DNA from: Escherichia coli
GTDB lineage: Bacteria; Pseudomonadota; Gammaproteobacteria; Enterobacterales; Enterobacteriaceae
Assembly (NCBI RefSeq): GCF_030013595.1
Contig: NZ_CP122768.1
Strand: one strand, 5' to 3'
DNA: 64,000 nucleotides
Made by a program: the position numbers and the translations under genes. The stretch's first letter is position 1. Every line of letters begins with the position of its first letter. Below the pieces are notes generated by a model that saw nothing but the letters and a program-made list of their open reading frames with translations, searched no databases and was not told the DNA's origin. Positions 10,834 to 29,035 of the stretch are shown here, piece by piece.

Positions 10834-10857
10834 CTTAACTATCACCTTAGGAGAGAC
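10834..10857 (+). promoter_or_regulatory. phage single-subunit-RNAP-type promoter P2 (class B, AACTATCAC upstream)
   Basis: CTTAACTATCACCTTAGGAGAGA; predicted +1 G at 10850; 45 bp upstream of ORF 10902. Confidence 0.55.
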
Positions 10858-10901
10858 GGGCCGTCCTCCACCCAATCAAAACCTTAAGAGGAGGACCATA
10901 C

Positions 10902-11402
10902 ATGGCTATTAAAATTCAGTGCTACACCGAGTCCGACAATGCGGCTTTCTTCGGTGACGATTCCGACCTCCAGCACCAGCTACCAGCACCGACATATGAC
11001 GAACCTAAGGCCCGCACAGGTAAGCCTCCTGTGGTCATCGACAACCGGGCTGTCCGTGCGTGGCTGATTGAGACTGGGTGTCTCTCCTATACGCAGCTTG
11101 TTGAGGCGTACCCGTGGGCTGACGATGTGTTCACAGGACTCTCACGGGCTACCAGTGGCGCTGTCGGTGCTGGACTCCCGGTATCTAAGGCGTACCTGTT
11201 CTCTGCCTTATATGGCACCAACGACATCTTCTCCCGTAACACAGCCAAATCCTACGCTGACATCACTGGGCGTTCACCGTCTCCTCGCTACCTGCGCCAC
11301 GTCAATAGCGTGCTTCAGGCTACGGCTGTGAATCTGGCTAAGGTTCTGAAGGACCGAGGGGATTTCACATGGTGGGATTACAACGATCAGTGCCTGTCCT
11401 GA
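10902..11402 (+). CDS. hypothetical protein, first gene downstream of P1/P2
   Basis: 166-aa ORF with strong RBS AAGAGGAGG; no family recognised. Confidence 0.6.
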   Translation: MAIKIQCYTESDNAAFFGDDSDLQHQLPAPTYDEPKARTGKPPVVIDNRAVRAWLIETGCLSYTQLVEAYPWADDVFTGLSRATSGAVGAGLPVSKAYLFSALYGTNDIFSRNTAKSYADITGRSPSPRYLRHVNSVLQATAVNLAKVLKDRGDFTWWDYNDQCLS

Positions 11403-11424
11403 GAGCCGCGCCAGCTCTGGGCTG

Positions 11425-11448
11425 GAATACCCCCTCACTATAGGGACA
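11425..11448 (+). promoter_or_regulatory. phage single-subunit-RNAP-type promoter P3 (class A; T3-like CC at -11/-10)
   Basis: GAATACCCCCTCACTATAGGGACA; 13/13 match to T7 consensus from -9 to +4 (CTCACTATAGGGA). Confidence 0.7.
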
Positions 11449-11451
11449 CCC

Positions 11452-11477
11452 CCTAAACTATCACTATAGGGGGGACC
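11452..11477 (+). promoter_or_regulatory. phage single-subunit-RNAP-type promoter P4 (class B)
   Basis: CTAAACTATCACTATAGGGGGGACC; TCACTATAGGG core. Confidence 0.65.
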
Positions 11478-11712
11478 AACCTTGCCTCTGCTTCTGATGC
11501 GTCAGAACACGCGAGGTCCTCCCGACATTAAGTATTCTCCTAAGTAATCAAGGCCCGTGACCGCCTCTGACAGACCTCCTGTATCGACCTCCAGCTCGTT
11601 AGCGTTCTTTAGTCGTCTCGGTTAGTAGGTAACCGGCTCATTTAAACCGTCTGGTCTGTTTCCTCCGGCTCTACAAAAATAATGTCCATCATTTTTTAAT
11701 GGACACTATCGT

Positions 11713-12360
11713 ATGAAACACCGGACCTGGATCACTGAAGCTTTACGTCTTCACTTTGAAGAACATTTACCCCGGGTTGTGGCCGGGCGTCGCCTGGGTG
11801 TACCAAAATCAACAGTTTGTAGTATGTTCGTGCGCTTTCGGAGAGCTGGCCTTTCGTGGCCTTTGCCCGCAGGCATGTCGGAGCAGGAACTTGATGCCTG
11901 CCTTTACGGACAATTTTCCACGGTACCAGTCGTACGTCCTGAAAGCACCGTTATATCCGAAGCCCCCGTGGTAAAAAAACGTCCCCGGCGGCCCAACTTC
12001 CCTTATGAGTTTAAAATCGCCTTAGTGGAGCAGTCACTGCAGCCCGGAGCCTGTGTGGCGCAGATCGCCCGGGAAAACGGAATCAACGATAACCTGCTCT
12101 TCAACTGGCGCCATCAATACCGGAAAGGTGGCCTGCTGCCTTCCGGAAAAAATATGCCGGCACTGCTTCCCGTGACGTTAACGCCGGAGCCGGATAATAA
12201 AATCCCGGCCCCCGCACAGGAACCAGAGCAGATAAATACACCGTCCGACAGTCTGTGTTGTGAGCTGGTTCTGCCGGCCGGAACTCTCAGGCTTAAAGGT
12301 AAACTGACGCCGGCGTTATTACAGACACTTATCCGCGAAATAAAAGGGAGCAGCCACTGA
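11713..12360 (+). CDS. IS66 accessory protein (orf1/TnpA-like)
   Basis: 215 aa, first ORF of IS66 triad; identical to copy-2 ORF. Confidence 0.8.
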   Translation: MKHRTWITEALRLHFEEHLPRVVAGRRLGVPKSTVCSMFVRFRRAGLSWPLPAGMSEQELDACLYGQFSTVPVVRPESTVISEAPVVKKRPRRPNFPYEFKIALVEQSLQPGACVAQIARENGINDNLLFNWRHQYRKGGLLPSGKNMPALLPVTLTPEPDNKIPAPAQEPEQINTPSDSLCCELVLPAGTLRLKGKLTPALLQTLIREIKGSSH

Positions 12361-12707
12361 TGATATCTCTCCCTGCAGGTTCGCGTATCTGGCTGGTTGC
12401 AGGTATCACCGATATGCGAAATGGCTTTAACGGCCTGGCATCAAAAGTTCAGAACGTCCTGAAGGATGACCCGTTCTCCGGACACCTGTTCATCTTCCGC
12501 GGACGCCGGGGTGACCAGATAAAAGTGTTGTGGGCTGACAGTGACGGACTGTGCCTCTTCACCAAACGCCTGGAGCGGGGCCGCTTCGTCTGGCCAGTCA
12601 CCCGTGACGGCAAGGTGCACCTTACTCCGGCTCAGTTATCCATGCTTCTTGAAGGTATCAACTGGAAGCACCCGAAACGAACGGAACGCGCTGGAATCCG
12701 CATATAA
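12360..12707 (+). CDS. IS66 Orf2 (TnpB-like)
   Basis: 115 aa, overlapping start with preceding stop (ATGA); typical IS66 orf2. Confidence 0.8.
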   Translation: MISLPAGSRIWLVAGITDMRNGFNGLASKVQNVLKDDPFSGHLFIFRGRRGDQIKVLWADSDGLCLFTKRLERGRFVWPVTRDGKVHLTPAQLSMLLEGINWKHPKRTERAGIRI

Positions 12708-12726
12708 CCCGTTGTAAAGTGAGGAT

Positions 12727-14298
12727 ATGGACACCTCACTTGCTCATGAGAACGCCCGCCTGCGGGCACTGTTGCAGACGCAACAGGACACCATCCGCCA
12801 GATGGCTGAATACAACCGCCTGCTCTCACAGCGGGTGGCGGCTTATGCTTCCGAAATCAACCGGCTGAAGGCGCTGGTTGCGAAACTGCAACGTATGCAG
12901 TTCGGTAAAAGCTCAGAAAAACTTCGTGCAAAAACCGAACGGCAGATACAGGAAGCACAGGAGCGAATCAGCGCACTTCAGGAAGAAATGGCGGAAACGC
13001 TGGGTGAGCAATATGACCCGGTACTGCCATCCGCCCTGCGCCAGTCTTCAGCCCGTAAACCGTTACCGGCCTCACTTCCCCGTGAAACCCGGGTTATCCG
13101 GCCGGAAGAGGAATGCTGTCCTGCCTGTGGTGGTGAACTCAGTTCTCTGGGATGTGATGTGTCAGAGCAACTGGAGCTTATCAGCAGCGCCTTTAAGGTT
13201 ATCGAAACACAACGTCCGAAACAGGCCTGTTGCCGGTGCGACCATATCGTACAGGCACCAGTACCTTCAAAACCCATTGCACGCAGTTATGCCGGAGCGG
13301 GGCTTCTGGCCCATGTTGTCACCGGGAAATATGCAGACCATCTGCCGTTATACCGCCAGTCAGAAATATACCGTCGTCAGGGAGTGGAGCTGAGCCGTGC
13401 CACACTGGGGCGCTGGACAGGTGCTGTTGCTGAACTGCTGGAGCCGCTGTATGACGTCCTGCGCCAGTATGTGCTGATGCCCGGTAAAGTCCATGCTGAT
13501 GATATCCCCGTCCCGGTCCAGGAGCCGGGCAGCGGTAAAACCCGGACAGCCCGGCTGTGGGTCTACGTCCGTGATGACCGTAACGCCGGTTCACAGATGC
13601 CCCCGGCGGTCTGGTTCGCGTACAGTCCGGACCGGAAAGGTATCCATCCACAAAATCACCTGGCCGGTTACAGCGGTGTGCTTCAGGCCGATGCTTACGG
13701 TGGTTACCGGGCGTTATACGAATCCGGCAGAATAACGGAAGCCGCGTGTATGGCTCATGCCCGGAGAAAAATCCACGATGTGCATGCAAGAGCGCCCACC
13801 TACATCACCACGGAAGCCCTGCAGCGTATCGGTGAACTGTATGCCATCGAGGCAGAGGTCCGGGGCTGTTCAGCAGAACAGCGTCTGGCGGCAAGAAAAG
13901 CCAGAGCCGCGCCACTGATGCAGTCACTGTATGACTGGATACAGCAACAGATGAAAACACTGTCGCGTCACTCAGATACGGCAAAAGCGTTCGCATACCT
14001 GCTGAAACAGTGGGATGCACTGAACGTGTACTGCAGTAATGGCTGGGTGGAAATCGACAACAACATCGCAGAGAACGCCTTACGGGGAGTGGCCGTAGGC
14101 CGGAAAAACTGGATGTTCGCGGGTTCCGACAGCGGTGGTGAACATGCGGCGGTGTTGTACTCGCTGATCGGCACATGCCGTCTGAACAATGTGGAGCCAG
14201 AAAAGTGGCTGCGTTACGTCATTGAACATATCCAGGACTGGCCGGCAAACCGGGTACGCGATCTGTTGCCCTGGAAAGTTGATCTGAGCTCTCAGTAA
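12727..14298 (+). CDS. IS66-family DDE transposase (Orf3/TnpC)
   Basis: 523 aa with leucine-zipper-like N-terminus, CxxC...CxxC zinc motif and DDE region. Confidence 0.85.
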
Positions 14299-14582
14299 AT
14301 ATCAATACGGTTCTGACGAGTCGCTTACGTTAGTAGCTCGTCTACTCACTACATTGGCTTAAGTCTATCACCGCTCACCATCTGGAGTCCTTACAGCTCG
14401 TCCTGACATGCGGTCTCACCTTATATGCACATGGAGAACATGGCCACTCCAGACCAACACTAATCAACATTAACCCTATTCACTTTCGTTAAGCATTTTT
14501 TGGTGGGTCCGTTTGGATGCATTGAATAGGTGCGGACTCCACGTGGAGACAGAAAGTGCTTTACTAAAGGAGCATCCTTTAT

Positions 14583-14972
14583 ATGACTATTAAATCCATC
14601 GTTATCAACGGTAAGACCATCCTGTCTACACCTAACGCCATCAATGAGGGTGTCTGGTTCGACATGCTTGAGGTCCATCAAGCTGCTGGCTTGCCTGCTA
14701 ACAAGACGTTCTCACAGTGGCGCAGCCGACAGTCTCGTGCATTAGAAGAGGCTGGAGAGGTGTCGTTTGACAGTGTACAGAAGACCCTGTGTGGCAGCTT
14801 TGTGGCAGTGCTGGCCTACCTTATGTGGGCGGACCTTACTCTCTGGCTGGCGGTGGTTCGTTACGTTGCGTCTGAGACTATCGGCGTCCTGCCTGACCGC
14901 TTCAAGTCTATCGACGGTGATAACCCCGAGTTAGAAATGTCAGAGGATAACAGCGAGTGGGAGGACTTCTAA
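14583..14972 (+). CDS. KilA-N domain protein (short)
   Basis: 129 aa; N-terminal motif WFDMLEVHQAAGLPANK...WLAVVRYV resembling KilA-N; strong RBS AAGGAG. Confidence 0.55.
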   Translation: MTIKSIVINGKTILSTPNAINEGVWFDMLEVHQAAGLPANKTFSQWRSRQSRALEEAGEVSFDSVQKTLCGSFVAVLAYLMWADLTLWLAVVRYVASETIGVLPDRFKSIDGDNPELEMSEDNSEWEDF

Positions 14973-14973
14973 G

Positions 14974-15714
14974 ATGACCATGAGCCAGCTTGAAGCATTA
15001 CCTATCGTCATCGAGGGTCATTCATTCATCTGCAACGACCAGCGCATGTGGAACCTGAACGAGATTCACCGAGTGTTAGGTCTTCCAGCAAGCAAGATGC
15101 CGTCTGAGTGGAATAACAAGATTCGCACACAACTTGACCGCTCCGGAAATTTCCGGACCGTGAATGGTGACGGCGGTGGTACATGGGCGACCGAGGCTGG
15201 GACCGTGGCTTATGCTATGTGGGTCTCTACAGATTTCTACCTGATGGTCATCAATGCTTTCATCTTTATGCGTAACGACGCAATCGTCCGAGAGCGTGTA
15301 GCGGTCAAACAGGCTGACGAGGCTAACGCTAACCTCTCCATCGCAGCACCTAAGGCAGACATCTTTGACGGTCGTCTGACCAATGGTGGCTCTGTTCCGT
15401 GGAACTGGGCGTGTAAATCTTTGGGTCTTGCCCCGATGAAACTGAAAGAGGGCTTGAAGCGCTCCGGTAAGTTCGTCCAGAAGTGGAACCCTGACAGTTA
15501 CGCCGACGAGCTTCGACCTCAGGAGAAGGCGTTCAGTATTGGACTATTCGTCACTAAGTCAGTCATGGGTAAAGACACATGGCAGGTGACAGCTAAAGGC
15601 TACGCATGGATGCAGGGGAACGCCCAGAAGTGGAGAGAGCTAATAGCTGATGGTGACCGCTTAAAGGCTGCTGAGCGTCGAGCACAGAAGCGTCTTAACC
15701 GTGGAGGTAAGTAG
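14974..15714 (+). CDS. KilA-N domain protein with C-terminal extension
   Basis: 246 aa; MWNLNEIHRVLGLP...NGDGGGTWATEAGTVAYAMWVSTDFYLMVI typical of KilA-N; start 2 nt after preceding stop. Confidence 0.6.
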   Translation: MTMSQLEALPIVIEGHSFICNDQRMWNLNEIHRVLGLPASKMPSEWNNKIRTQLDRSGNFRTVNGDGGGTWATEAGTVAYAMWVSTDFYLMVINAFIFMRNDAIVRERVAVKQADEANANLSIAAPKADIFDGRLTNGGSVPWNWACKSLGLAPMKLKEGLKRSGKFVQKWNPDSYADELRPQEKAFSIGLFVTKSVMGKDTWQVTAKGYAWMQGNAQKWRELIADGDRLKAAERRAQKRLNRGGK

Positions 15715-15716
15715 TC

Positions 15717-15941
15717 ATGGCTATGATTGACCCTCGTACACCTATCGGCAAAGCGACCCTTCGTTACCGTGGTCTGCCTACACGTCATCTGCTGTCCCTG
15801 CTGAGACTTGGAGTCGAAGACCCCGAACGCCCGTACTACAGTCGAGACGAGCTAATAGCTATGTTGGTGGACCGTGATTTAGACAATCAGTTACGCCGAG
15901 CCTTTGCGAAGTCTAGCGCAGCTAGGGAACTGGAGTCCTGA
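15717..15941 (+). CDS. hypothetical protein
   Basis: 74-aa ORF, start 3 nt after preceding stop, same strand. Confidence 0.45.
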   Translation: MAMIDPRTPIGKATLRYRGLPTRHLLSLLRLGVEDPERPYYSRDELIAMLVDRDLDNQLRRAFAKSSAARELES

Positions 15942-16146
15942 ACCTTATGGGGCAGAAAAACCGCCGCATAAACCTATCGTCTGCTGACCGAAGTTTCGAC
16001 GCATTGAGCCAGACGGAAAAGTTTTCCTGCTGGTAAACCACCTTAATTTAAACACCTTTTGAGAATGACCGATGCGGGGAGACCCGTAGGCATAACTGTG
16101 TCTGCGATACCGATAGTTCTCACCTTCTCAATAGGAGTACTACCTT

Positions 16147-16638
16147 ATGTTATTCAACAACAACGACTGGAAACTATCAGTCACCGACATCAATCCCTAT
16201 GAAAATACTGTGAGTCTGGACGGTCAGTCCTATCCGCTGTCTCTGGCGATTAAGACCCTGATTCCGGGCTACCTGTCAGGCTTACCGTCCACCAGCCGCG
16301 AGGCGATGGAGTTACTGGAAGCTCTGGCTGAAGCTGGCGTGTCCATTGGCAACTTCTTCAGTAATGACCTGATGACCGCCTATGGTCGCCGCCAGCAGAA
16401 CAAGCGAGCCGAAGCTGAGCGTATTGCTAAAGAGCAGCGCATTCAGGCTGAGCGTATGCGTGAAGAGAACATGACTGATGCAGAGTGGCAGAAAGAGCTA
16501 CAGCGCCGTGAACAGGTCAAAGCTGAACGCCGGACCTATGGTGAGCACCTCCGCAGTGCTACCCATTCCGCTGGGCGCTCCCGTGCTTCTATGGTCGCTG
16601 ACATTGAGTCCACGGACAACTGGATGGACAGCCTCTAA
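16147..16638 (+). CDS. hypothetical charged coiled-coil protein (scaffold-like?)
   Basis: 163 aa; RBS AGGAG; C-terminal K/R/E-rich helical segment. Confidence 0.5.
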   Translation: MLFNNNDWKLSVTDINPYENTVSLDGQSYPLSLAIKTLIPGYLSGLPSTSREAMELLEALAEAGVSIGNFFSNDLMTAYGRRQQNKRAEAERIAKEQRIQAERMREENMTDAEWQKELQRREQVKAERRTYGEHLRSATHSAGRSRASMVADIESTDNWMDSL

Positions 16639-16704
16639 GACACAGACACACAAGTGGTCCTGACCTGATGTCGGGACCCACAGTATCCAAACTAATTTAG
16701 GAGA

Positions 16705-17700
16705 TTGATTATTATGACGATTAAAGACGCTTTCCAGTTCGGCATTGAGCCAGTACGTATCAGCGACACCGACAACATTCAGATTAACGAAGGTTTGCCA
16801 ACTAACGCAGACCCGCAGGTCTATGCCCTCCAGTTAGCTAAGACGGTTAAGGCTATGCTGAACGGTGTACTTAAAGACGCTCAAGAGAACATCCCGTTCC
16901 CTGTAGAAGTCCTGCCGACCCGCAATAGCCTGCCTACTCCAATCATTGCTCACACTCTGGCTGATCGCTCTGTGGTCGTTCCTGTCCGTGGTGGTAAGCG
17001 ACCTGAAGTCGTGACCGTTCCGTCTGGACAAGAAATCGTGGTCGAACCAATCGAGCAGGCTATTCTCATCTCTGAGCAGACCAAGCTCTGGGACGCCAAG
17101 TCATCCACCGGATTCACTCAGGGCACACTTCAGCAGGACGCTATGAACATCTGTGAGAATGTGGTCCGTACCATCAACGCTCGCATGGTCGACGTTCTGG
17201 AGTCCTCCAAACTGTTGAAGACCGTAGAGCTGCCAGTCCTGACTGGAAGCCTGACCACTAAGGCAGACGCTATCATGGACGCTCTGTTTGAGAACACCGA
17301 GTCCTCTTTCGGCTCTGAAGTGTCTGATTACGGCATCATCGCCCATGAGTCCCAACTGAAAGCGCTGTCCCGTCTGGCAGCTAAACAGGGCTTCTCTGGT
17401 GGAGACGCTATCGTGGATATGCTGGGTACCGACATCGCCTATTACAACGGTGAAGACAAGGGTGTATTCATGCTGGCTAAACGCTTCACGGCCCTGAGCT
17501 TCGGCTGCTTCCGTCACGACGGTGAGAATATTACGGTCGTCCTTTCACGTGATGGCGACTCTCAGTCCCACGACTTGGAAATCCTCGGTAAAGTGTTCGT
17601 TGTCGCTGAAGCTGCTACGACCATCAAGATGGGCACTGGCTCAGCTACTGCCGTCCTGCCTGTAGTCAAACGCCTGAAGTTCACCAAGACCGAAGCGTAA
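16705..17700 (+). CDS. hypothetical 331-aa protein (possible virion/structural protein; unverified)
   Basis: Long ORF with RBS AGGAG directly downstream of coiled-coil ORF; no motif recognised. Confidence 0.5.
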   Translation: MIIMTIKDAFQFGIEPVRISDTDNIQINEGLPTNADPQVYALQLAKTVKAMLNGVLKDAQENIPFPVEVLPTRNSLPTPIIAHTLADRSVVVPVRGGKRPEVVTVPSGQEIVVEPIEQAILISEQTKLWDAKSSTGFTQGTLQQDAMNICENVVRTINARMVDVLESSKLLKTVELPVLTGSLTTKADAIMDALFENTESSFGSEVSDYGIIAHESQLKALSRLAAKQGFSGGDAIVDMLGTDIAYYNGEDKGVFMLAKRFTALSFGCFRHDGENITVVLSRDGDSQSHDLEILGKVFVVAEAATTIKMGTGSATAVLPVVKRLKFTKTEA

Positions 17701-17844
17701 GACCAATGGGTAAGAGGTAAGTCTGGACTGAATATCAGCAGGACTTCAGGTGGTGGCCTGTCACTGTGATTAACTAACTACGGTCTGGACCAATGGTCTG
17801 GGCCTTATTACTGGTATGGTAGTATACAGGCGAAGGAGGACCCA

Positions 17845-18000
17845 ATGTCTATGACTTCCGCAGACCTAAGGTCCCTCCTGACTCTGGTCTATAAACTCGT
17901 GTTCCTCTCTGTGGGTCTCTACATGGTTCTCTCTGGTCGACTCGGTGTGGATGTGTTCGACACTCTGTCTAAGGCTGTGGGTGGACTTCTAGGTCCTTAG
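17845..18000 (+). CDS. small hydrophobic protein (51 aa, one predicted TM helix)
   Basis: ATG 17845 with RBS GAAGGAGG; LVFLSVGLYMVLSG hydrophobic core; below ORF-track length cutoff. Confidence 0.4.
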   Translation: MSMTSADLRSLLTLVYKLVFLSVGLYMVLSGRLGVDVFDTLSKAVGGLLGP

Positions 18001-18241
18001 GTTTGGACTCACAGTGGGACCGATGATTTCTGACAGAAAAATGTGAATGACCATCTAATACATTAAGCCAGCAGACTTCCCCCCATAGTCCCGCCTCAAG
18101 TCCAGACCGAGGCCACCGGGGGTCCTGACCAGCCGTCTAGACATCCCGTCTAATGACACAAGTCTGGCACAAAGCCTGACACAAAGTCCTTGACTCAATG
18201 CAGGACCTCAGGCCTACTAAGGGTCCGCTTCAAGTCCTTGA

Positions 18242-18251
18242 AGTTCCAGAT
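18242..18251. repeat. right copy of 10-bp direct repeat AGTTCCAGAT
   Basis: Identical to 8801-8810; ynfE sequence resumes here. Confidence 0.8.
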
Positions 18252-19652
18252 GAACTTAATGGGCACATCCAGTTTATCTTTGCCGCGGACGCCGTCGCGG
18301 ATTGCCGTCATTTGCGGGCCATGATCGATAGCATCCGTCCAGCTGAAGCAGGAGATTGACGTTTTGACCGGATTATCCAGCACCGGTAGGCGTTCTATGG
18401 TAATGGTATAGGTCGATTCACGCGCGCCACTATTCCCGCCGCTGATGCCGACATTGCCCGTCAAAATAGGCAACATAGCAATAGCGCGTGCGGTCAGCTC
18501 ACCGTTTGCCTGGCGTTGCGGCCCCCAGCCCTGGCAGATATAAGCGGGTTTTGCTGTGCCAATTTCACGCGCCAGTTTGATGATACGGTCCACCGGGATA
18601 CCGGTAATTTGCGAAGCCCACTGCGGCGTTTTCGCTGTTTTATCGTCACCTTCACCAAGAATATAGGCTTTATAGTGACCATTTTTTGGTGCATCTGCGG
18701 GTAAGGTTTTTTCGTCATAGCCGACGCAGTATTTATCAAGAAAAGGTTGATCAACGAGATTTTCGTTAATCAATACCCAGGCAATACCCGCAACCAGCGC
18801 GGCATCGGTGCCCGGGCGAATAGGAAGCCATTCGTCTTCACGACCGGCAGCCGTATCGGTATATCGCGGATCGATAACAATCATTTTTGCGTTCGATTTC
18901 TCGCGCGCTTTTTCAAGAAGATAAGTGATGCCACCACCGCTCATGCGGGTTTCTGCCGGGTTGTTACCAAACATCACGACCAGCTTGCTGTTTTCAATAT
19001 CCGTGGTGCTGTTGCCATCATTACTGCCGTAGGTGTAGGGCATGGCACAGGAAATTTGCGCGGTGCTGTAGGAGCCATACTGGTTGAGTGAGCCGCCGTA
19101 GCAGTTCATCAGGCGTTTGACCGCCGAGGCGGATGGCGAAGAGCGGGTCATATTGCCGCCAACAATCCCCGAAGAGTACTGAATATATACAGCCTCATTG
19201 TCATATTGTTCGACGGTTTTTTTCAGGCTACTGGCGATAGTATCCAGGGCTTCATCCCAGCTAATCCGTTCGAATTTGCCTTCGCCGCGTTTGCCCACGC
19301 GTTTCATTGGGTAATTCAAGCGGTCGGGATGATTAATACGCCGACGGATGGAGCGACCGCGCAAACAGGCGCGTACTTGATGATTGCCATACTCATCGCT
19401 GCCGGTGTTGTCAGTTTCCACCCAGGTCACTTCATTATCTTTAACATGCAGACGAAGTGCACAGCGGCTACCACAGTTGACGGAACAGGCACCCCAGACC
19501 ACTTTCTCGCTGGCCTGTTGTACTGCTGCCGCTGCACTGCGCAGGGTGAACGGTAAAGAAAAACCGCCTGCAGCCAGCGCCAGAGAACCTATCGCGGTAG
19601 ATTTAACGAGTGTTCTGCGGCTGATGCCCACCATTTGTTCATTTTTGGACAT
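18243..19652 (-). pseudogene. ynfE: ynfE N-terminal fragment (Tat signal, catalytic subunit) ending at insertion junction
   Basis: 470 ynfE codons from MSKNEQMVGISRRTLVKS to IWN at 18243; ORF then runs 16 codons into element DNA to a stop at 18195. Confidence 0.85.
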
Positions 19653-19850
19653 AACTCACTCCCTGTTCTTTATCGTTATATAAAAGTTTATATATTGAAT
19701 ATTTAGCGCGCTAACAATAGAGGGAGTCTACCTATTTTGGGTTAAGAATTATTAATCCATATCAATAGAAGGGTATGAGTAATAAAGTGGGATTATGTTG
19801 TATGTTCAAATCGCCGGATGTGTCGTATCCGGCGTGCTGTCGATAATGTG

Positions 19851-20156
19851 TTACTGCGGTTCGGCAGGCGCGCCATCCTGGGTAGACTGCGCGGGAGCAG
19901 AGACGTTACCGCTGGTGGTGCGGGTGTAGAGAATTTTATGCGTATCATTAGCGCAATGCCCGACGACCTGGGAATCAGGCTGATCAACCTGGTCATTGGG
20001 TACAATACTTAACGTGAAGCTGCTTTCGGGAACGCCATTATTGATAATGCGCTGTGATATATCGCTCTGTATGCGCTCACAGGATCCCGGCGCGGCGAGT
20101 ACCGCGGGTGAGGCGAGGGCGAGCAGAAGCGCGGCACAGCAGGTTGAGAGTTTCAT
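19851..20156 (-). CDS. ynfD: DUF1161 periplasmic protein
   Basis: 101 aa from MKLSTCC with signal peptide; synteny. Confidence 0.8.
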   Translation of the reverse strand: MKLSTCCAALLLALASPAVLAAPGSCERIQSDISQRIINNGVPESSFTLSIVPNDQVDQPDSQVVGHCANDTHKILYTRTTSGNVSAPAQSTQDGAPAEPQ

Positions 20157-20263
20157 CATAAGCTCCTTACGCGAAGATAACTTCTTTAAGCATAGCATTT
20201 AACGTGTAAAGTACTGTATTTGCTACTATGATTGAGAATCATCTCTACTCTCTGGTGACTGTT

Positions 20264-20974
20264 GTGAAATACAAATTACTGCCATGCTTACTCGCGATAT
20301 TCCTCACAGGATGTGACCGCACAGAGGTAACACTTTCATTTACCCCTGAGATGGCCAGTTTCTCTAATGAATTCGATTTTGATCCGCTGCGTGGTCCGGT
20401 AAAAGATTTCACTCAGACATTAATGGATGAGCAAGGTGAAGTGACGAAACGTGTTTCTGGGACTTTGTCGGAAGAAGGCTGTTTTGATTCACTCGAATTA
20501 CTGGATCTGGAAAATAATACCGTGGTCGCTCTGGTACTGGACGCCAATTATTACCGTGATGCCGAGACGCTGGAGAAGAGAGTACGTTTACAGGGAAAAT
20601 GCCAGCTAGCAGAATTACCTTCTGCCGGGGTGAGTTGGGAAACCGATGATAATGGCTTCGTGATTAAAGCCAGCAGCAAACAGATGCAGATGGAATATCG
20701 CTATGATGATCAGGGGTATCCGCTGGGTAAAACCACGAAAAGTAACGACAAAACATTATCTGTCAGCGCCACGCCATCAACGGATCCGATCAAAAAATTA
20801 GATTACACAGCGGTTACTTTACTGAATAATCAACGGGTTGGTAATGTAAAACAGAGCTGTGAATATGACAGTCACGCCAATCCGGTGGACTGTCAGCTAA
20901 TCATTGTTGATGAAGGAGTAAAACCCGCCGTCGAACGGATTTACACCATCAAAAATACTATCGATTATTATTAA
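20264..20974 (+). CDS. ynfC: UPF0257 lipoprotein
   Basis: 236 aa from probable GTG start; lipobox LTGC; synteny. Confidence 0.8.
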   Translation: MKYKLLPCLLAIFLTGCDRTEVTLSFTPEMASFSNEFDFDPLRGPVKDFTQTLMDEQGEVTKRVSGTLSEEGCFDSLELLDLENNTVVALVLDANYYRDAETLEKRVRLQGKCQLAELPSAGVSWETDDNGFVIKASSKQMQMEYRYDDQGYPLGKTTKSNDKTLSVSATPSTDPIKKLDYTAVTLLNNQRVGNVKQSCEYDSHANPVDCQLIIVDEGVKPAVERIYTIKNTIDYY

Positions 20975-20976
20975 TG

Positions 20977-21537
20977 CTATTGTGCGGTCGGCTTCAGGAG
21001 AGTCTGACCCGGTGTTTTGTGCTCTGCCAGATACTGATGCTGGAATATACACATGCGAATAGCATTACGATATTGACCATTAATAAAAAACTCATGCATC
21101 AATTCACCTTCAACCGTAAAGCCAAGCTTGCGGTAAATGTGAATCGCTTTTTCATTCTCTTTATCAACGATCAGATACAGCTTATAGAGATTGAGAACGG
21201 TGAAGCCATAGTCCATTGCTAATTTGGCGGCACGGGTTGCCAGACCTTTCCCTTGATACTCCGGGGAGATAATTATCTGAAATTCTGCGCGGCGATGAAC
21301 ATGGTTAATTTCCACCAGCTCCACCAGACCGGCTTTTTCGCCGTCACATTCCACCACAAAGCGCCGTTCGCTCTGATCGTGAATATGCTTATCGTACAGA
21401 TCAGAGAGTTCAACAAAGGCTTCGTAGGGTTCCTCAAACCAGTAACGCATCACACTGGCGTTATTGTCGAGTTGATGTACATAGCGTAAATCTTCACGCT
21501 CCAGCGGGCGTAGCTTAACACTGTGGGCGCTTGGCAT
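20977..21537 (-). CDS. speG: spermidine N1-acetyltransferase
   Basis: 186 aa GNAT-family sequence matching recalled SpeG. Confidence 0.9.
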
Positions 21538-21571
21538 AACGTGTCCTTACATTCCTTAAATCAATAACAGG

Positions 21572-21913
21572 TTAGGGGGTAATAACGCGGCCAGTTCGAC
21601 GGTCCAGGCAGCGCAAAGTATTTGGCTCCCAGTAGGCATTGATGTTGGCGCTTTGCTCACATTTATCGCGGTTATCAAAAGCGGCGTCGGCTTTATCCCA
21701 CTCTTTTTCAGTGCGTTTATTCACTTTCTGGCGCAGATTGCGCGTGTCATTCCATTGCTCTTTTTCCATAGCGGCGTGCTGGCGGCTTTGTGCACTGTCG
21801 CCAGACTCAATCACCAGTTTGTTAGTTTCGGCATGAACAGTTGTGCTCAATGCCAGTGCGCAAGGCAGCAGAAAAGCGAGCAGGCCAATTCGTTTGCTGA
21901 GAGTAATTTTCAT
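21572..21913 (-). CDS. ynfB: UPF0482 secreted protein
   Basis: 113 aa with signal peptide; synteny. Confidence 0.8.
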
Positions 21914-22047
21914 AATTCATTCCCTGTATGAATGATTAAAGGTGATTCTACACCATCCACTGCGAACGCAAAACGTACCAGGAGGATGTTTATATTGATG
22001 ATATTATGTCGTCCTATAACTATACATGATGTCAATAAGTGACAAAG

Positions 22048-22374
22048 ATGATTAAAACAACGTTACTATTTTTTGCTACTGCGCTGTGTGAAATTATTGG
22101 ATGCTTTCTGCCCTGGTTGTGGTTAAAACGAAACGCCAGTATCTGGCTGTTACTTCCGACGGGGATTTCTCTGGCACTGTTTGTCTGGTTGTTAACGTTG
22201 CATCCTGCGGCGAGTGGGCGTGTTTACGCGGCTTATGGTGGCGTTTATGTCTGCACGGCGTTGATGTGGCTGCGCGTTGTGGATGGCGTGAAACTGAGTC
22301 TTTATGACTGGACGGGGGCATTGATTGCGCTTTGCGGCATGTTGATCATTGTTGCGGGCTGGGGGCGCGCGTAA
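22048..22374 (+). CDS. ynfA: UPF0060 small membrane protein
   Basis: 108 aa from MIKTTLLFF; multi-TM. Confidence 0.8.
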
Positions 22375-22579
22375 GGACATAAATCCATTTTATCAATAAG
22401 ATACAAGGAAGTGTCAGCTGACAAAAGGTATTCTATTTCATCTTTTGTCAACCATTCACGGCGCAAATATACGCCTTTTTTTGTGATCACTCCGGCTTTT
22501 TTCGATCTTCATACTTGTATGGTAGTAGCTCAGTTGCGTAGATTTCATGCATCACGACAAGCGATGCAAGGAATCGAAC

Positions 22580-23794
22580 ATGAAGATCGTAAAGGCTGAA
22601 GTTTTTGTTACCTGTCCGGGGCGTAATTTCGTCACATTAAAAATCACCACTGAGGACGGTATTACGGGCCTTGGGGATGCCACCCTCAATGGACGTGAGC
22701 TTTCCGTGGCCTCTTATTTGCAGGATCACCTTTGTCCGCAGCTTATTGGTCGCGATGCGCACCGTATCGAAGATATCTGGCAGTTTTTCTATAAAGGTGC
22801 TTACTGGCGTCGCGGCCCGGTGACGATGTCGGCCATTTCAGCGGTTGATATGGCGCTGTGGGATATTAAAGCCAAAGCTGCCAACATGCCGCTTTACCAG
22901 TTACTAGGCGGCGCGTCTCGTGAAGGGGTGATGGTTTATTGCCATACCACCGGTCACAGTATTGATGAAGCTCTGGATGATTATGCTCGTCATCAGGAGC
23001 TGGGATTCAAAGCCATCCGCGTGCAGTGCGGAATCCCTGGTATGAAAACCACCTACGGCATGTCGAAAGGTAAAGGTCTGGCTTATGAACCCGCAACTAA
23101 AGGACAGTGGCCGGAAGAGCAGCTGTGGTCGACGGAGAAATACCTCGATTTCATGCCGAAATTGTTTGACGCGGTACGTAACAAGTTTGGTTTTAATGAA
23201 CATTTGCTGCATGACATGCACCATCGCTTAACGCCTATTGAAGCGGCGCGCTTTGGTAAAAGCATTGAAGATTATCGCATGTTCTGGATGGAAGACCCGA
23301 CGCCTGCGGAAAACCAGGAATGCTTCCGTCTCATTCGCCAACATACCGTCACACCCATCGCGGTGGGTGAAGTCTTCAACAGCATCTGGGACTGCAAGCA
23401 ACTGATTGAAGAGCAACTTATCGATTATATCCGCACTACGCTGACCCACGCGGGTGGTATTACCGGTATGCGCCGGATTGCCGATTTTGCTTCGCTGTAT
23501 CAGGTACGTACTGGCTCACACGGTCCTTCCGATTTGTCACCAGTCTGCATGGCTGCGGCGCTGCACTTTGATCTGTGGGTCCCCAATTTCGGTGTCCAGG
23601 AATACATGGGTTATTCCGAACAAATGCTCGAAGTCTTCCCGCACAACTGGACTTTCGATAACGGCTATATGCATCCGGGAGACAAACCGGGTCTTGGCAT
23701 CGAATTCGATGAAAAGCTGGCGGCGAAATATCCCTATGAACCTGCTTATCTGCCAGTCGCACGTCTGGAAGATGGCACGCTGTGGAACTGGTAA
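22580..23794 (+). CDS. rspA: starvation-sensing protein RspA (enolase-superfamily mannonate dehydratase-like)
   Basis: 404 aa from [14 protein letters not shown]. Confidence 0.9.
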
Positions 23795-23805
23795 GGAGTA
23801 AGATA

Positions 23806-24825
23806 ATGAAAAGCATTTTAATTGAAAAACCGAATCAACTGGCAATTATCGAACGCGAAATACCCATCCCGTCAGCGGGTGAAGTACGAGTAAAAGTGAA
23901 ACTTGCCGGAATTTGTGGTTCAGATAGCCATATTTATCGTGGGCATAATCCTTTTGCGAAATATCCGCGCGTCATTGGTCATGAATTCTTTGGCGTCATT
24001 GATGCAGTGGGTGAAGGCGTGGAAAGCGCCAGAGTCGGTGAACGCGTTGCTGTCGATCCGGTGGTCAGCTGTGGGCATTGCTATCCGTGCTCTATAGGTA
24101 AGCCGAACGTTTGTACGACACTGGCTGTATTAGGTGTGCACGCTGACGGTGGTTTCAGTGAATATGCCGTGGTGCCGGCAAAAAATGCGTGGAAAATTCC
24201 TGAAGCAGTGGCCGATCAATATGCGGTGATGATCGAACCTTTTACCATTGCGGCTAACGTTTCCGGTCATGGTCAACCGACTGAAAATGATACCGTTCTG
24301 GTTTACGGTGCCGGTCCAATCGGCCTGACGATCGTTCAGGTATTAAAAGGCGTCTATAACGTTAAAAATGTGATTGTTGCCGATCGCATTGATGAACGAC
24401 TGGAAAAAGCGAAAGAGAGCGGGGCAGACTGGGCGATTAATAACAGCCAGACACCGCTTGGCGAGATTTTCGCTGAAAAAGGCATAAAGCCGACATTAAT
24501 TATCGATGCGGCTTGTCATCCTTCTATCCTGAAAGAGGCTGTAACGCTGGCTTCTCCGGCGGCACGTATTGTATTGATGGGGTTCTCCAGTGAACCGTCT
24601 GAAGTGATTCAGCAAGGAATTACCGGAAAAGAACTCTCTATTTTTTCTTCACGCTTAAATGCAAATAAATTCCCGGTCGTTATCGACTGGTTAAGTAAAG
24701 GGTTAATTAAACCAGAAAAATTAATTACCCATATGTTTGATTTCCAGCATGTTGCTGATGCCATTAGTTTATTTGAACAGGATCAAAAACATTGCTGCAA
24801 AGTCTTACTCACTTTTTCTGAATAA
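23806..24825 (+). CDS. rspB: starvation-sensing protein RspB (zinc-dependent alcohol dehydrogenase family)
   Basis: 339 aa; GHEFFG zinc-ADH motif; overlaps rspA end. Confidence 0.9.
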   Translation: MKSILIEKPNQLAIIEREIPIPSAGEVRVKVKLAGICGSDSHIYRGHNPFAKYPRVIGHEFFGVIDAVGEGVESARVGERVAVDPVVSCGHCYPCSIGKPNVCTTLAVLGVHADGGFSEYAVVPAKNAWKIPEAVADQYAVMIEPFTIAANVSGHGQPTENDTVLVYGAGPIGLTIVQVLKGVYNVKNVIVADRIDERLEKAKESGADWAINNSQTPLGEIFAEKGIKPTLIIDAACHPSILKEAVTLASPAARIVLMGFSSEPSEVIQQGITGKELSIFSSRLNANKFPVVIDWLSKGLIKPEKLITHMFDFQHVADAISLFEQDQKHCCKVLLTFSE

Positions 24826-24882
24826 TACCAATAACGGCGAGTAAGTAGTACGCATCTTACCTCTTTTTTAGAGATAACCATT

Positions 24883-24975
24883 ATGACAATAGAAAAACAC
24901 GAAAGAAGCACTAAGGATTTGGTGAAAGCAGCAGTATCGGGATGGCTGGGCACAGCGCTTGAATTTATGGATTTC
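24883..24975 (+). pseudogene. ydfJ: 5' fragment of MFS transporter gene ydfJ truncated by prophage integration
   Basis: MTIEKHERSTKDLVKAAVSGWLGTALEFMDF then divergence; in E. coli K-12 the Qin prophage occupies this locus. Confidence 0.55.
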
Positions 24976-25012
24976 AAGAGTCATACGTGTCAACTATTTG
25001 ATAAATATTAAA

Positions 25013-25801
25013 TTAATTTTTCATTGCTTCGTTATGGGGCATGGTTGGGGCAAACTCGCTTAACTGTGTATTTAACAAAGCTACCTGTGCATTATTGTTT
25101 TCAGACATCCATTTTCCGTATACCTGAAATACCATTTGCGCATCTGCATGGCCCATCTGGTTTGCTATAAATGCCGGGTTAGCACCAGCTGTCAGCGACC
25201 AGCAGGCATAAGTATGTCTCGACTGATATGATTTTCGATGGCGGAGTCCGGCACGTTTTATCGCTGCGTCCCACATCTGCCTTATTGAGTCAACGGTAAA
25301 ATGGTCACCATAATTTTTTACTCTCGCTGACACTTCAGGTTGAAAAACAAAGGTGCATTTATGTTTTTCTGTTCTGCCATACTCTCTGAGGTGAACATCA
25401 ATGATATGCTCTTTGCTCAGTCTCGTTAATGTCATCTGACTCCGGAGAGCGTCGATTGCTGGCTTAATAAGATGAATGACCCGATTGGTTCCCGCCTGTG
25501 TTTTTGGTACCGTGAAACGGTCTTTTGCTAAATTTCTCCTGATCATCATTGTTCCATTTTTCAGATCTATGTCCTCCCATCCAAGTGCACACAGCTCACC
25601 AGGGCGAACGCCAGTATAAACAGAAACACACCATAAATTTTTGGCTTGCTGATTTCTGCACGCATCGATAAGACGGATGAATTCCTCCCGCGAAAGAGGA
25701 TCCGGAATGGTTCTTGATTCCTTTAATGGCGAGATCCCCTTAAACGGGTTATCTGCCAGGTAACCGTTATCAACACCAAACTGGAACACGGCGTTAAGAT
25801 T
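25013..25801 (-). pseudogene. prophage tyrosine integrase, C-terminal catalytic part (gene split by IS66)
   Basis: R...HxxR...Y catalytic domain (LRHRKSYQSRHTYA, MGHADAQM..VYGKW); reading frame continues to the IS junction at 25801. Confidence 0.85.
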
Positions 25802-25831
25802 GTAAGCGACTCGTCAGAACCGTATTGATAT

Positions 25832-27403
25832 TTACTGAGAGCTCAGATCAACTTTCCAGGGCAACAGATCGCGTACCCGGTTTGCCGGCCAGTCCTGGAT
25901 ATGTTCAATGACGTAACGCAGCCACTTTTCTGGCTCCACATTGTTCAGACGGCATGTGCCGATCAGCGAGTACAACACCGCCGCATGTTCACCACCGCTG
26001 TCGGAACCCGCGAACATCCAGTTTTTCCGGCCTACGGCCACTCCCCGTAAGGCGTTCTCTGCGATGTTGTTGTCGATTTCCACCCAGCCATTACTGCAGT
26101 ACACGTTCAGTGCATCCCACTGTTTCAGCAGGTATGCGAACGCTTTTGCCGTATCTGAGTGACGCGACAGTGTTTTCATCTGTTGCTGTATCCAGTCATA
26201 CAGTGACTGCATCAGTGGCGCGGCTCTGGCTTTTCTTGCCGCCAGACGCTGTTCTGCTGAACAGCCCCGGACCTCTGCCTCGATGGCATACAGTTCACCG
26301 ATACGCTGCAGGGCTTCCGTGGTGATGTAGGTGGGCGCTCTTGCATGCACATCGTGGATTTTTCTCCGGGCATGAGCCATACACGCGGCTTCCGTTATTC
26401 TGCCGGATTCGTATAACGCCCGGTAACCACCGTAAGCATCGGCCTGAAGCACACCGCTGTAACCGGCCAGGTGATTTTGTGGATGGATACCTTTCCGGTC
26501 CGGACTGTACGCGAACCAGACCGCCGGGGGCATCTGTGAACCGGCGTTACGGTCATCACGGACGTAGACCCACAGCCGGGCTGTCCGGGTTTTACCGCTG
26601 CCCGGCTCCTGGACCGGGACGGGGATATCATCAGCATGGACTTTACCGGGCATCAGCACATACTGGCGCAGGACGTCATACAGCGGCTCCAGCAGTTCAG
26701 CAACAGCACCTGTCCAGCGCCCCAGTGTGGCACGGCTCAGCTCCACTCCCTGACGACGGTATATTTCTGACTGGCGGTATAACGGCAGATGGTCTGCATA
26801 TTTCCCGGTGACAACATGGGCCAGAAGCCCCGCTCCGGCATAACTGCGTGCAATGGGTTTTGAAGGTACTGGTGCCTGTACGATATGGTCGCACCGGCAA
26901 CAGGCCTGTTTCGGACGTTGTGTTTCGATAACCTTAAAGGCGCTGCTGATAAGCTCCAGTTGCTCTGACACATCACATCCCAGAGAACTGAGTTCACCAC
27001 CACAGGCAGGACAGCATTCCTCTTCCGGCCGGATAACCCGGGTTTCACGGGGAAGTGAGGCCGGTAACGGTTTACGGGCTGAAGACTGGCGCAGGGCGGA
27101 TGGCAGTACCGGGTCATATTGCTCACCCAGCGTTTCCGCCATTTCTTCCTGAAGTGCGCTGATTCGCTCCTGTGCTTCCTGTATCTGCCGTTCGGTTTTT
27201 GCACGAAGTTTTTCTGAGCTTTTACCGAACTGCATACGTTGCAGTTTCGCAACCAGCGCCTTCAGCCGGTTGATTTCGGAAGCATAAGCCGCCACCCGCT
27301 GTGAGAGCAGGCGGTTGTATTCAGCCATCTGGCGGATGGTGTCCTGTTGCGTCTGCAACAGTGCCCGCAGGCGGGCGTTCTCATGAGCAAGTGAGGTGTC
27401 CAT
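25832..27403 (-). CDS. IS66-family DDE transposase (Orf3/TnpC)
   Basis: 523 aa identical to 12727..14298 product. Confidence 0.85.
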
Positions 27404-27422
27404 ATCCTCACTTTACAACGGG

Positions 27423-27770
27423 TTATATGCGGATTCCAGCGCGTTCCGTTCGTTTCGGGTGCTTCCAGTTGATACCTTCAAGAAGCATGGATAACTGAGC
27501 CGGAGTAAGGTGCACCTTGCCGTCACGGGTGACTGGCCAGACGAAGCGGCCCCGCTCCAGGCGTTTGGTGAAGAGGCACAGTCCGTCACTGTCAGCCCAC
27601 AACACTTTTATCTGGTCACCCCGGCGTCCGCGGAAGATGAACAGGTGTCCGGAGAACGGGTCATCCTTCAGGACGTTCTGAACTTTTGATGCCAGGCCGT
27701 TAAAGCCATTTCGCATATCGGTGATACCTGCAACCAGCCAGATACGCGAACCTGCAGGGAGAGATATCAT
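27423..27770 (-). CDS. IS66 Orf2 (TnpB-like)
   Basis: 115 aa identical to copy 1. Confidence 0.8.
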   Translation of the reverse strand: MISLPAGSRIWLVAGITDMRNGFNGLASKVQNVLKDDPFSGHLFIFRGRRGDQIKVLWADSDGLCLFTKRLERGRFVWPVTRDGKVHLTPAQLSMLLEGINWKHPKRTERAGIRI

Positions 27771-28417
27771 CAGTGGCTGCTCCCTTTTATTTCGCGGATA
27801 AGTGTCTGTAATAACGCCGGCGTCAGTTTACCTTTAAGCCTGAGAGTTCCGGCCGGCAGAACCAGCTCACAACACAGACTGTCGGACGGTGTATTTATCT
27901 GCTCTGGTTCCTGTGCGGGGGCCGGGATTTTATTATCCGGCTCCGGCGTTAACGTCACGGGAAGCAGTGCCGGCATATTTTTTCCGGAAGGCAGCAGGCC
28001 ACCTTTCCGGTATTGATGGCGCCAGTTGAAGAGCAGGTTATCGTTGATTCCGTTTTCCCGGGCGATCTGCGCCACACAGGCTCCGGGCTGCAGTGACTGC
28101 TCCACTAAGGCGATTTTAAACTCATAAGGGAAGTTGGGCCGCCGGGGACGTTTTTTTACCACGGGGGCTTCGGATATAACGGTGCTTTCAGGACGTACGA
28201 CTGGTACCGTGGAAAATTGTCCGTAAAGGCAGGCATCAAGTTCCTGCTCCGACATGCCTGCGGGCAAAGGCCACGAAAGGCCAGCTCTCCGAAAGCGCAC
28301 GAACATACTACAAACTGTTGATTTTGGTACACCCAGGCGACGCCCGGCCACAACCCGGGGTAAATGTTCTTCAAAGTGAAGACGTAAAGCTTCAGTGATC
28401 CAGGTCCGGTGTTTCAT
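27770..28417 (-). CDS. IS66 accessory protein (orf1/TnpA-like)
   Basis: 215 aa identical to copy 1. Confidence 0.8.
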   Translation of the reverse strand: MKHRTWITEALRLHFEEHLPRVVAGRRLGVPKSTVCSMFVRFRRAGLSWPLPAGMSEQELDACLYGQFSTVPVVRPESTVISEAPVVKKRPRRPNFPYEFKIALVEQSLQPGACVAQIARENGINDNLLFNWRHQYRKGGLLPSGKNMPALLPVTLTPEPDNKIPAPAQEPEQINTPSDSLCCELVLPAGTLRLKGKLTPALLQTLIREIKGSSH

Positions 28418-28501
28418 ACGATAGTGTCCATTAAAAAATGATGGACATTATTTTTGTAGAGCCGGAGGAAACAGACCAGACGGTTTAAATGAGCCGGTTA
28501 C

Positions 28502-29016
28502 TTAAGATTTGTCATGTAATTATTTACAGTTACAGCCGATCTACCTGGTTGTGTAACAATATAGTTACTTTTGGGGCTCTGGTATCCAGTCAGTAGCTCT
28601 TTACGAACCTCCAGTAATTTTTCTTTATTAATCGATGAGGCAAGATTTTTTTCACCGATTATGCTCAGGATATTTTTGATGACGGCACGGTATGTGTTGA
28701 GTGATGTTTTTGCGACTTCAGTTTCTTTCAGTGCCAGAAATTTTTCAGCCAGTTCTTTTATGGTTAAATCTTGTCGGGTCTCACCAAATTTTTCCAGATT
28801 GCGTGAGGAGGGAAACTGTTTTGCATAGTCGAAAACACCAGTTTTTATTGCGTAACAAACAGAGGCGCGTAGCTCACCTGCAACGCGCCTGTTTTTTGCT
28901 GTGTCAGGAACCCCCAGGTTTTCCCTGACTCTTACGCCTTTATAAACAAACCAGATACGTAATTTCCCTCCATGGTTTTCCACGCCTGTCGGATATTTCA
29001 TTTCAACTTCTCTCAT
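28502..29016 (-). pseudogene. prophage tyrosine integrase, N-terminal part
   Basis: 172-aa N-terminal arm/core-binding region ending at IS66 junction. Confidence 0.8.
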
Positions 29017-29035
29017 TAGTTAGTGTGGCTTTTAG

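Follow-up and report, generated by a model that had tools for sequence, protein, structure and literature searches.

Two identical ISCro1 copies in inverted orientation in Escherichia coli are best explained as separate insertions around an interval that could in principle be inverted

The window analysed here, a 64 kb stretch of an Escherichia coli genome, harbors two copies of one insertion sequence that face in opposite directions. This raises the question of how the pair arose, and of whether the segment between the copies has been, or could be, inverted. The best explanation, to which we assign a probability of about 0.9, is that they are sister copies of ISCro1 of recent origin that entered by separate simple insertions, and that the interval between them is uninverted, with a flip possible in principle.

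Copy 1 is located at 11629-14328 on the plus strand and copy 2 at 25802-28501 on the minus strand. A direct comparison of copy 1 with the reverse complement of copy 2, 2700 nt against 2700 nt, gave 0 mismatches, which bears out the first-pass annotation of identical copies in inverted orientation approximately 11.5 kb apart. In a repeat search the two copies form one inverted pair with arms at 11626-14328 and 25802-28504, each 2703 nt long, 100% complementary and 11473 nt apart. The 3 extra bases of each arm are bases of the target duplications, which match in part by chance. A perfect inverted repeat of 2.7 kb is far beyond chance. The repeat search did not reveal any ISCro1 copies beyond these two in the 64 kb window.

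The element has the anatomy of the IS66 family. In brief, copy 1 encodes tnpA (11713-12360, 215 aa from the ATG at 11713), tnpB (12360-12707, 115 aa) and the DDE transposase gene tnpC (12727-14298, 523 aa), all on the plus strand and all intact. In copy 2, the corresponding intact genes are found on the minus strand at 27770-28417 (tnpA), 27423-27770 (tnpB) and 25832-27403 (tnpC). TnpA matches HTH_Tnp_1 and, over profile positions 1-189, the NCBIfam model IS66_access_TnpA (296 bits, cutoff 150), and TnpB matches Pfam TnpB_IS66 (IS66 Orf2). Both Pfam and NCBIfam identify TnpC as an IS66 family DDE transposase, by DDE_Tnp_IS66 (E=2.5e-103) with the zinc finger, leucine zipper and C-terminal modules zf-IS66, LZ_Tnp_IS66 and DDE_Tnp_IS66_C, and by transpos_IS66 (477.9 bits, cutoff 180), respectively. 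The gene order tnpA-tnpB-tnpC with overlapping tnpA and tnpB, as given by the open reading frames and the profiles, is that of the IS66 family, for which Han et al. in 2001 and Gourbeyre et al. in 2010 reportedly described two accessory genes before the transposase and the same overlap. Terminal repeats in this family are imperfect, about 20-30 bp long and start with GTAA. Those of copy 1 are of this kind, with a left repeat GTAACCGGCTCATTTAAACCGTCT (11629-11652) and a right repeat (14305-14328, reverse complement GTAAGCGACTCGTCAGAACCGTAT) that match at 18 of 24 positions. The 8 bp target duplication of the family is found at both window copies and at four more ISCro1 copies in the comparison genomes L002-L004, and mapping of both flanks gave 8 bp duplicated targets at five other ISCro1 insertions, in the int-xis region. 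It should be noted that the way in which IS66 family elements transpose has been characterised only poorly (PMC12898284).

The first-pass annotation had labelled the element IS66. This is correct at the level of the family, but the element is not IS66 itself; judged by its sequence it is most probably ISCro1, a catalogued member of that family. Insertion sequences are usually given the name of an ISfinder reference to which they have >95% DNA identity. The assignment made here is an indirect one, by comparison with E. coli copies annotated in RefSeq/PGAP as 'IS66-like element ISCro1 family transposase', to which the window copies are 99.9-100% identical. Base by base, the window copies differ from ISCro1 of four E. 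coli genomes at 2-3 of 2700 positions, and from the best E. coli database matches by one gap only, which corresponds to an extra T. At >=80% coverage, ISCro1 is present in 1,492 of the 5,426 complete genomes of E. coli that were searched. It was first catalogued in Citrobacter rodentium ICC168, where it is the most expanded insertion sequence with 24 copies (PMC3072379), and the window copies share its three genes, its ends and its 8 bp duplication. Elsewhere the element is 2699 bp long, whereas the window copies are 2700 bp.

Each copy is flanked by a target duplication of its own, GTTAGTAG at 11621-11628 and 14329-14336 for copy 1, and TTAAGATT at 25794-25801 and 28502-28509 for copy 2. Different and intact 8 bp duplications were thus found as previously noted, and the independence of the insertions, which had been read from them, is further supported by empty target sites in other E. 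coli genomes. Such empty sites are carried by five genomes, L001-L005, and the 8 bp target is present once at each well-aligned site. For copy 1 the single overlap is seen in RM10410 (L002 20177-20184), and for copy 2 the single 8 bp overlaps are located at L001 30445-30452, L002 34303-34310, L004 24080-24087 and L005 10185-10192. Uninterrupted targets are found in strains LT2-3, RM10410, ApSLC23 and HCP5S3_I2, with a single 8 bp overlap in all cases except the copy 1 site of LT2-3, which is poorly aligned (7 bp overlap at 87% identity). Across both sites, all five genomes align collinearly with the window, plus strand to plus strand. One of these strains, HCP5S3_I2 from pig, is near-identical to the window (99.95% identity over 18242-25801) and lacks both insertions. 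Based on the empty sites and the collinearity, we conclude that both copies are simple, independent insertions. Since each duplication is paired and the five genomes are collinear with the window, the interval is in its ancestral orientation, and the present molecule represents the parental, uninverted state. We suggest that each copy arrived by ordinary ISCro1 transposition with duplication of 8 bp of target, copy 1 between genes of the ynfE island and copy 2 within a prophage integrase gene, and that the sequenced molecule has since undergone either zero or an even number of inversions of the 11.5 kb interval.

We did not find an insertion at either site in any other complete E. coli genome, using 4.3 kb queries of flank, IS and flank as well as 160 bp junction queries. 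Neither site is occupied by ISCro1 in these genomes, none of them holds either junction as one piece, and no other carries the two insertions as a pair. Matches to copy 2 at 100% coverage were all multi-piece joins, with the IS either in the same gene at a distance of 123-549 bp or in rspB. A 73% match to copy 1, in RM10410, is an empty site beside two other ISCro1 copies. The best match of 97.7% might also suggest that the interval belongs to a divergent lineage, a candidate reading that was rejected because ranking by coverage had hidden HCP5S3_I2, which lacks the island.

The interval between the copies (14329-25801) is 11,473 bp long. The right part of the ynfE island, which it includes, encodes a 129-aa ORF, a KilA-N/ANT protein and ORFs of 163 aa and 331 aa. 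The rest comprises the 5' fragment of ynfE, the genes ynfD, ynfC, speG, ynfB, ynfA, rspA and rspB, a prophage attachment end and the C-terminal fragment of the integrase. This gene content agrees with the earlier description of the interval as the right half of the ynfE element, ynfD-rspB and the prophage attachment end. Of these, ynfD-rspB belong to the E. coli core genome and keep their usual position and order. The island integrated in ynfE (8812-18241) is about 9.4 kb with copy 1 and about 6.7 kb without it, and an 11 bp direct repeat, AGTTCCAGATG, bounds it on both sides (8801-8811 and 18242-18252). The 3' fragment of ynfE (about 7785-8811) and its 5' fragment (18242-19652), both on the minus strand, lie on either side. 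In L003, L004 and L005 the island is absent and ynfE is intact. Copy 1 is intergenic within this island.

Copy 2 splits the integrase gene of a lambdoid, Qin-like prophage adjoining rspB. The catalytic C-terminal fragment with the Phage_integrase domain is located at 25013-25801 and the N-terminal fragment with the Arm-DNA-bind_2 and SAM-like domains at 28502-29016, both on the minus strand; the gene is intact in L001, L002, L004 and L005. Because copy 2 breaks the integrase, the prophage is probably unable to excise on its own and would be locked in place.

A run of six T (T6) at 11692-11697 on the plus strand of copy 1, in the loop of a 7 bp hairpin (TGTCCAT...ATGGACA), accounts for the extra T; in every other ISCro1 copy examined the run is T5. 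The same variant is found in copy 2, read as a run of A at 28433-28438, minus strand. Of >13,000 ISCro1 matches in 5,426 genomes, the best are 2699 bp long rather than 2700 bp, and none of these genomes has the extra T. Among the copies examined, T6 is therefore private to this genome and common to both copies, indicating that the two are recent sister copies. The additional T removes the TnpA start codon annotated by RefSeq and leaves the conserved TnpA profile intact. The shared private variant points to at least one recent transposition, from which we infer that the element may be competent. Other ISCro1 copies may exist outside the window, in which case the two could both descend from a third copy and not one from the other. 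It is also conceivable that T6 in both copies is a sequencing error applied to each.

The same geometry, inverted identical copies around a segment, would be produced if copy 2 had arisen from copy 1 by intramolecular replicative transposition, a process in which one event both yields an inverted second copy of the IS and flips the interval, and the shared private T6 would fit one copy as the direct parent of the other. Such an event predicts that each copy is bordered by half of the old target together with half of the new one, whereas a matched pair is seen at each, and it predicts an inverted interval, whereas five genomes free of the insertions align collinearly with the window. Paired duplications and collinearity together refute this origin, and we consider its probability negligible. 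Inverted identical IS arms that bracket a gene-bearing segment are likewise the layout of composite transposons such as Tn5 and Tn10, which insert as a unit. In that layout the outer flanks share one duplication common to the unit, whereas here they differ (GTTAGTAG versus TTAAGATT) and each IS has a duplication of its own. Furthermore, the island halves and the integrase halves continue across each IS, and the enclosed ynfD-rspB genes stand where they usually do in E. coli. The enclosed DNA is resident core genome rather than foreign cargo, which means that the pair and its interval were not brought in as a transposon, and we regard a composite origin as equally negligible.

Two further alternatives are also very improbable, if somewhat less so than the former two. 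Perfect identity between repeats is the usual product of consensus polishing, and a homopolymer difference such as T6 is a typical class of sequencing error, so one real copy, or two non-identical ones, might have been placed or polished into two perfect copies. The comparison is one of assembled sequences, in which the consensus may have erased slight differences between the two copies. Against an assembly artefact stand four unique junctions, whose clean 8 bp duplications correspond to targets present in single copy in other genomes. Matched duplications at two loci are not what misassembly would produce, and ISCro1 is multicopy in the closest relative, with several copies on the chromosome and on plasmids. 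The other alternative is an actively flipping segment, with coexisting orientations and a phenotype, e.g. in speG or rspAB expression or in island or prophage mobility. It fits the geometry, and mixed populations of inversion isomers have been reported for C. rodentium repeats (PMC3072379). However, both breakpoints would lie inside the IS and no promoter-gene junction would be altered, and the insertions are private to this genome, leaving no time for selection on a switch. In E. coli K-12, recombination between all IS pairs taken together gives rise to only 4.5e-5 deletions per genome and generation (PMC5009759). A phenotypic switch is also less likely than the reading that copy 2 is one case of a genuine ISCro1 hotspot, due to a regional target preference (e.g. 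for AT-rich or structured DNA) or to repeated selection on hosts for IS insertions that disable prophage excision (prophage locking). We put the hotspot forward tentatively, as a possibility that is more doubtful than not; if true, the recurrence at int-xis would be a small, testable case of IS target preference or of selection for prophage immobilisation.

Separate insertion of two sister copies, the reading preferred here, would leave the interval open to a later flip, given the length (2.7 kb), identity and inverted orientation of the copies. They form two long, highly similar inverted repeats on one replicon (2700 bp, 0 mismatches, 11,473 bp apart), and it is textbook-plausible that RecA could use the pair to invert the interval. 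When two inverted IS copies recombine, the segment between them is flipped without a new junction being formed (PMC5009759), and one copy stays at either end. IS-mediated inversions are on record for E. coli (PMC4173774) and for C. rodentium (PMC3072379), and those of the E. coli long-term evolution experiment and of ISCro4 in C. rodentium involve an identical inverted IS pair on one chromosome, as here (PMC5009759, PMC4173774, PMC3072379). In these cases the inverted product was observed, whereas the window holds only the substrate, in the parental orientation; its interval is also small in comparison (11.5 kb), and no gene would be disrupted by the flip. We speculate that host homologous recombination could flip the interval at a probably low rate per generation and at little predicted cost. 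The interval has no KOPS motif and carries 1 Chi site on the plus and 2 on the minus strand; as predictors of inversion cost, the KOPS, Chi and GC-skew counts gave nothing notable. If a close relative with both insertions were found to have swapped duplication halves, with GTTAGTAG on one side and AATCTTAA on the other, the present order would have to be a re-inverted one.

The arrangement is an ordinary one, of an already known kind, and matters little beyond strain-level bookkeeping. It does indicate that ISCro1 has recently been active in this E. coli lineage, as a 99.9%-identical relative lacks the two insertions and the entire ynfE island. It also defines a 17 kb region in which assemblies or short-read structural-variant callers cannot tell the two orientations apart.

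A minor observation concerns the rspB-adjacent lambdoid prophage, in which 13 independent ISCro1 sites, that of the window and 12 others, fall within 575 bp. These insertions come from 68 genomes and face in either direction. A query of the same design did not return any ISCro1 insertions in a single control zone, the neighbouring exo gene. An orientation bias in the integrase gene was considered and discarded, as 8 of the other sites have the same orientation as the window copy and 4 the opposite, which is not significant. An apparent avoidance of the catalytic half of int was discarded as well, since the query sees IS ends only within about 580 bp on one flank side. The sites cover the N-terminus of int, the int-xis spacer and the xis region.

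We found one inverted repeat pair in a repeat search of the 64-kb window, with arms at 11626-14328 and 25802-28504 that are 100% complementary and lie 11,473 nt apart. The same search gave no third ISCro1 copy in the 64-kb window. The element itself occupies 11629-14328 (copy 1, plus strand) and 25802-28501 (copy 2, minus strand), the 3 additional bases of the arms being target-duplication bases. Direct comparison of copy 1 with the reverse complement of copy 2 (2700 vs 2700 nt) gave 0 mismatches, which bears out the two identical, inverted copies about 11.5 kb apart noted in the first-pass annotation.

Each copy contains three co-directional ORFs. The 215-aa product matches HTH_Tnp_1 and NCBIfam IS66_access_TnpA, the 115-aa product TnpB_IS66, and the 523-aa product LZ_Tnp_IS66, zf-IS66, DDE_Tnp_IS66 (E=2.5e-103), DDE_Tnp_IS66_C and NCBIfam transpos_IS66. 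The element ends are imperfect inverted repeats starting with GTAA, matching at 18/24 positions. In a megablast search of 5,426 complete E. coli genomes, the element matched 13,889 places in 2,911 genomes, and in 1,492 of these a match covered at least 80% of the query. The top matches show 100% identity broken by a single gap, and their annotation reads 'IS66-like element ISCro1 family transposase', accompanied by TnpA and TnpB. Based on these matches, the domain and profile hits and the ends, the element is ISCro1, a catalogued member of the IS66 family. It is the most expanded IS of Citrobacter rodentium ICC168, with 24 copies (PMC3072379), and is also described in E. coli ST131 (PMC8764528).

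Reading all four junctions confirmed a different, intact 8-bp duplication for each copy, GTTAGTAG at 11621-11628 and 14329-14336 for copy 1 and TTAAGATT at 25794-25801 and 28502-28509 for copy 2. We aligned the window to the chromosomes of E. coli LT2-3, RM10410, 025542-1, ApSLC23 and HCP5S3_I2. The copy-1 target is single in RM10410 (L002 20177-20184), and the copy-2 target is single in LT2-3 (L001 30445-30452), RM10410 (L002 34303-34310), ApSLC23 (L004 24080-24087) and HCP5S3_I2 (L005 10185-10192). The separate duplications and these empty sites support the earlier claim of independent insertions. All five chromosomes are collinear plus-to-plus with the window left of copy 1 (where the island that carries it is present), in the interval between the copies and right of copy 2.

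Had the copies recombined with each other, the halves of the two duplications would be exchanged and the interval reversed. Neither is seen, so the sequenced pair is uninverted. Intramolecular replicative transposition as the source of the pair would have left the same two marks, and is ruled out by the same matched duplications and collinearity. Arrival as a composite transposon is excluded: no duplication is common to the outer flanks, and the cargo belongs to the resident core genome. No complete E. coli genome searched contains either insertion junction in one piece. The observation is real and was correctly described, but it is ordinary and of a kind already known: a known IS, with two recent independent insertions in mobile DNA.

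Over window 6169-8815, 18242-25801 and 28502-48982, the closest relative, pig strain HCP5S3_I2, shows 99.85-99.95% identity. The whole ynfE island is missing from it and its integrase is intact, which dates both insertions, on this comparison, as recent events in the lineage of the window. HCP5S3_I2 has several ISCro1 copies of 2699 bp, on chromosome and plasmids alike. The exo gene of its prophage holds an IS3-family element (L005 13496-14826) that is absent from the window (31808-31812), just as the island and copy 2 are absent from HCP5S3_I2; this indicates fast IS and island turnover between genomes 99.9% identical.

A T6 run at 11692-11697 in copy 1 (A6 at 28433-28438 in copy 2) is T5 in every other ISCro1 copy examined (four copies compared), and the top database matches all span 2699 bp, vs 2700 in the window. 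The variant is thus private to this genome and common to both copies. The two are accordingly recent sisters, unless consensus polishing spread a homopolymer error to both. Close to the left end, a 7-bp hairpin (TGTCCAT/ATGGACA) has this run in its loop. With one more T, translation from the RefSeq-annotated TnpA start meets a stop after codon 5, so that start is destroyed. Predicted TnpA function is probably unaffected, since the NCBIfam TnpA profile begins at residue 3 of the product from the next ATG, at 11713.

When inverted IS copies recombine, the interval is inverted, one copy is kept per end and no new junction is created, so a flip is invisible to short reads (PMC5009759). ISCro4-mediated inversion with mixed populations is documented in C. 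rodentium (PMC3072379), and the E. coli long-term evolution lines had 19 inversions, with IS elements in most rearrangements of all kinds (PMC4173774), whereas the window pair is a structural substrate only. It has the structure required for homologous inversion, a textbook potential; the flip itself is putative and, as judged from the sequenced window, unrealised. It is predicted to cost little, because a motif count gave no KOPS in the interval, there are only three Chi sites and no gene would be broken. The inverted isomer would be rare, since the total IS-IS recombination deletion rate in K-12 is only 4.5e-5 per genome per generation (PMC5009759). We infer that a flip would leave the two attachment ends of the ynfE island inverted relative to each other. 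It would also carry the int-proximal attachment end of the prophage some 11.5 kb away from that prophage, to the far end of the flipped interval, and both elements would be further immobilised.

Copy 1 is intergenic. The ynfE island around it, about 9.4 kb long (8812-18241), interrupts that gene and has the 11-bp repeat AGTTCCAGATG at its borders. Direct repeats of 71-77% identity (5301-5600/7785-8084, 6508-6807/18433-18732 and 7299-7571/19236-19508) are simply the ynfF and ynfE paralogues, the latter in two pieces through the island. The left part encodes a 514-aa integrase-like protein (8877-10421), annotated by RefSeq as 'site-specific integrase' in related islands. It gave no Pfam match at E<=0.001, and in NCBIfam only archaeal XerA matched, marginally (E=0.0014, 18 bits). 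A divergent tyrosine recombinase targeting ynfE is a possible identity. The right part encodes a 129-aa ORF, a KilA-N/ANT protein and two ORFs without family matches. Island ORFs 10902-11402, 14583-14972, 16147-16638 and 16705-17700 gave no convincing family match, only one marginal sub-threshold NCBIfam match. Directly downstream of the integrase-like gene are three tandem copies (two perfect, one 80%) of a 44-nt unit at 10645-10776, possibly recombinase-binding or iteron-like. No copy of the unit turned up when the related LT2-3 and RM10410 islands were searched with up to 9 mismatches allowed. RM10410 has an ISCro1 copy at the equivalent spot, and its duplication, ATTTAAAC, is a motif within the unit. 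The RM10410 island holds two ISCro1 copies in direct orientation (L002 16597-19295 and 21038-23736), a deletion substrate. As these occupy two further sites, the comparison shows repeated ISCro1 insertion into this island.

In the lambdoid prophage adjoining rspB, copy 2 divides the tyrosine integrase into an N-terminal fragment with Arm-DNA-bind_2 (28502-29016) and a catalytic fragment with Phage_integrase (25013-25801); the prophage would probably no longer be able to excise by itself. A further 67 complete genomes have ISCro1 in the same prophage region (window 28502-29300), at 12 independent sites other than that of copy 2, 8 oriented as in the window and 4 opposite. The sites span 575 bp, from the N-terminal part of int through the int-xis spacer into xis. 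In GPEC1258 the ISCro1 target abuts that of the window, and that integrase carries ISEc8 as well as an IS3-family element. A control query of the same design, anchored in the exo gene next to this region, gave 0 genomes; GC is 41% in the hot zone vs 48% in this control zone. As the site search was one-sided and exo the single control, we regard the apparent recurrence as a lead, not a result; possible causes are a target preference of ISCro1 and selection that favours locking of the prophage. Further into the prophage, 36616-39792 encodes a 495-aa ORF, without a Pfam match, followed by a 446-aa HTH+rve_3 transposase; the HCP5S3_I2 annotation gives these as 'P-loop ATPase, Sll1717 family' and ISEsa1/IS1202-like, respectively.
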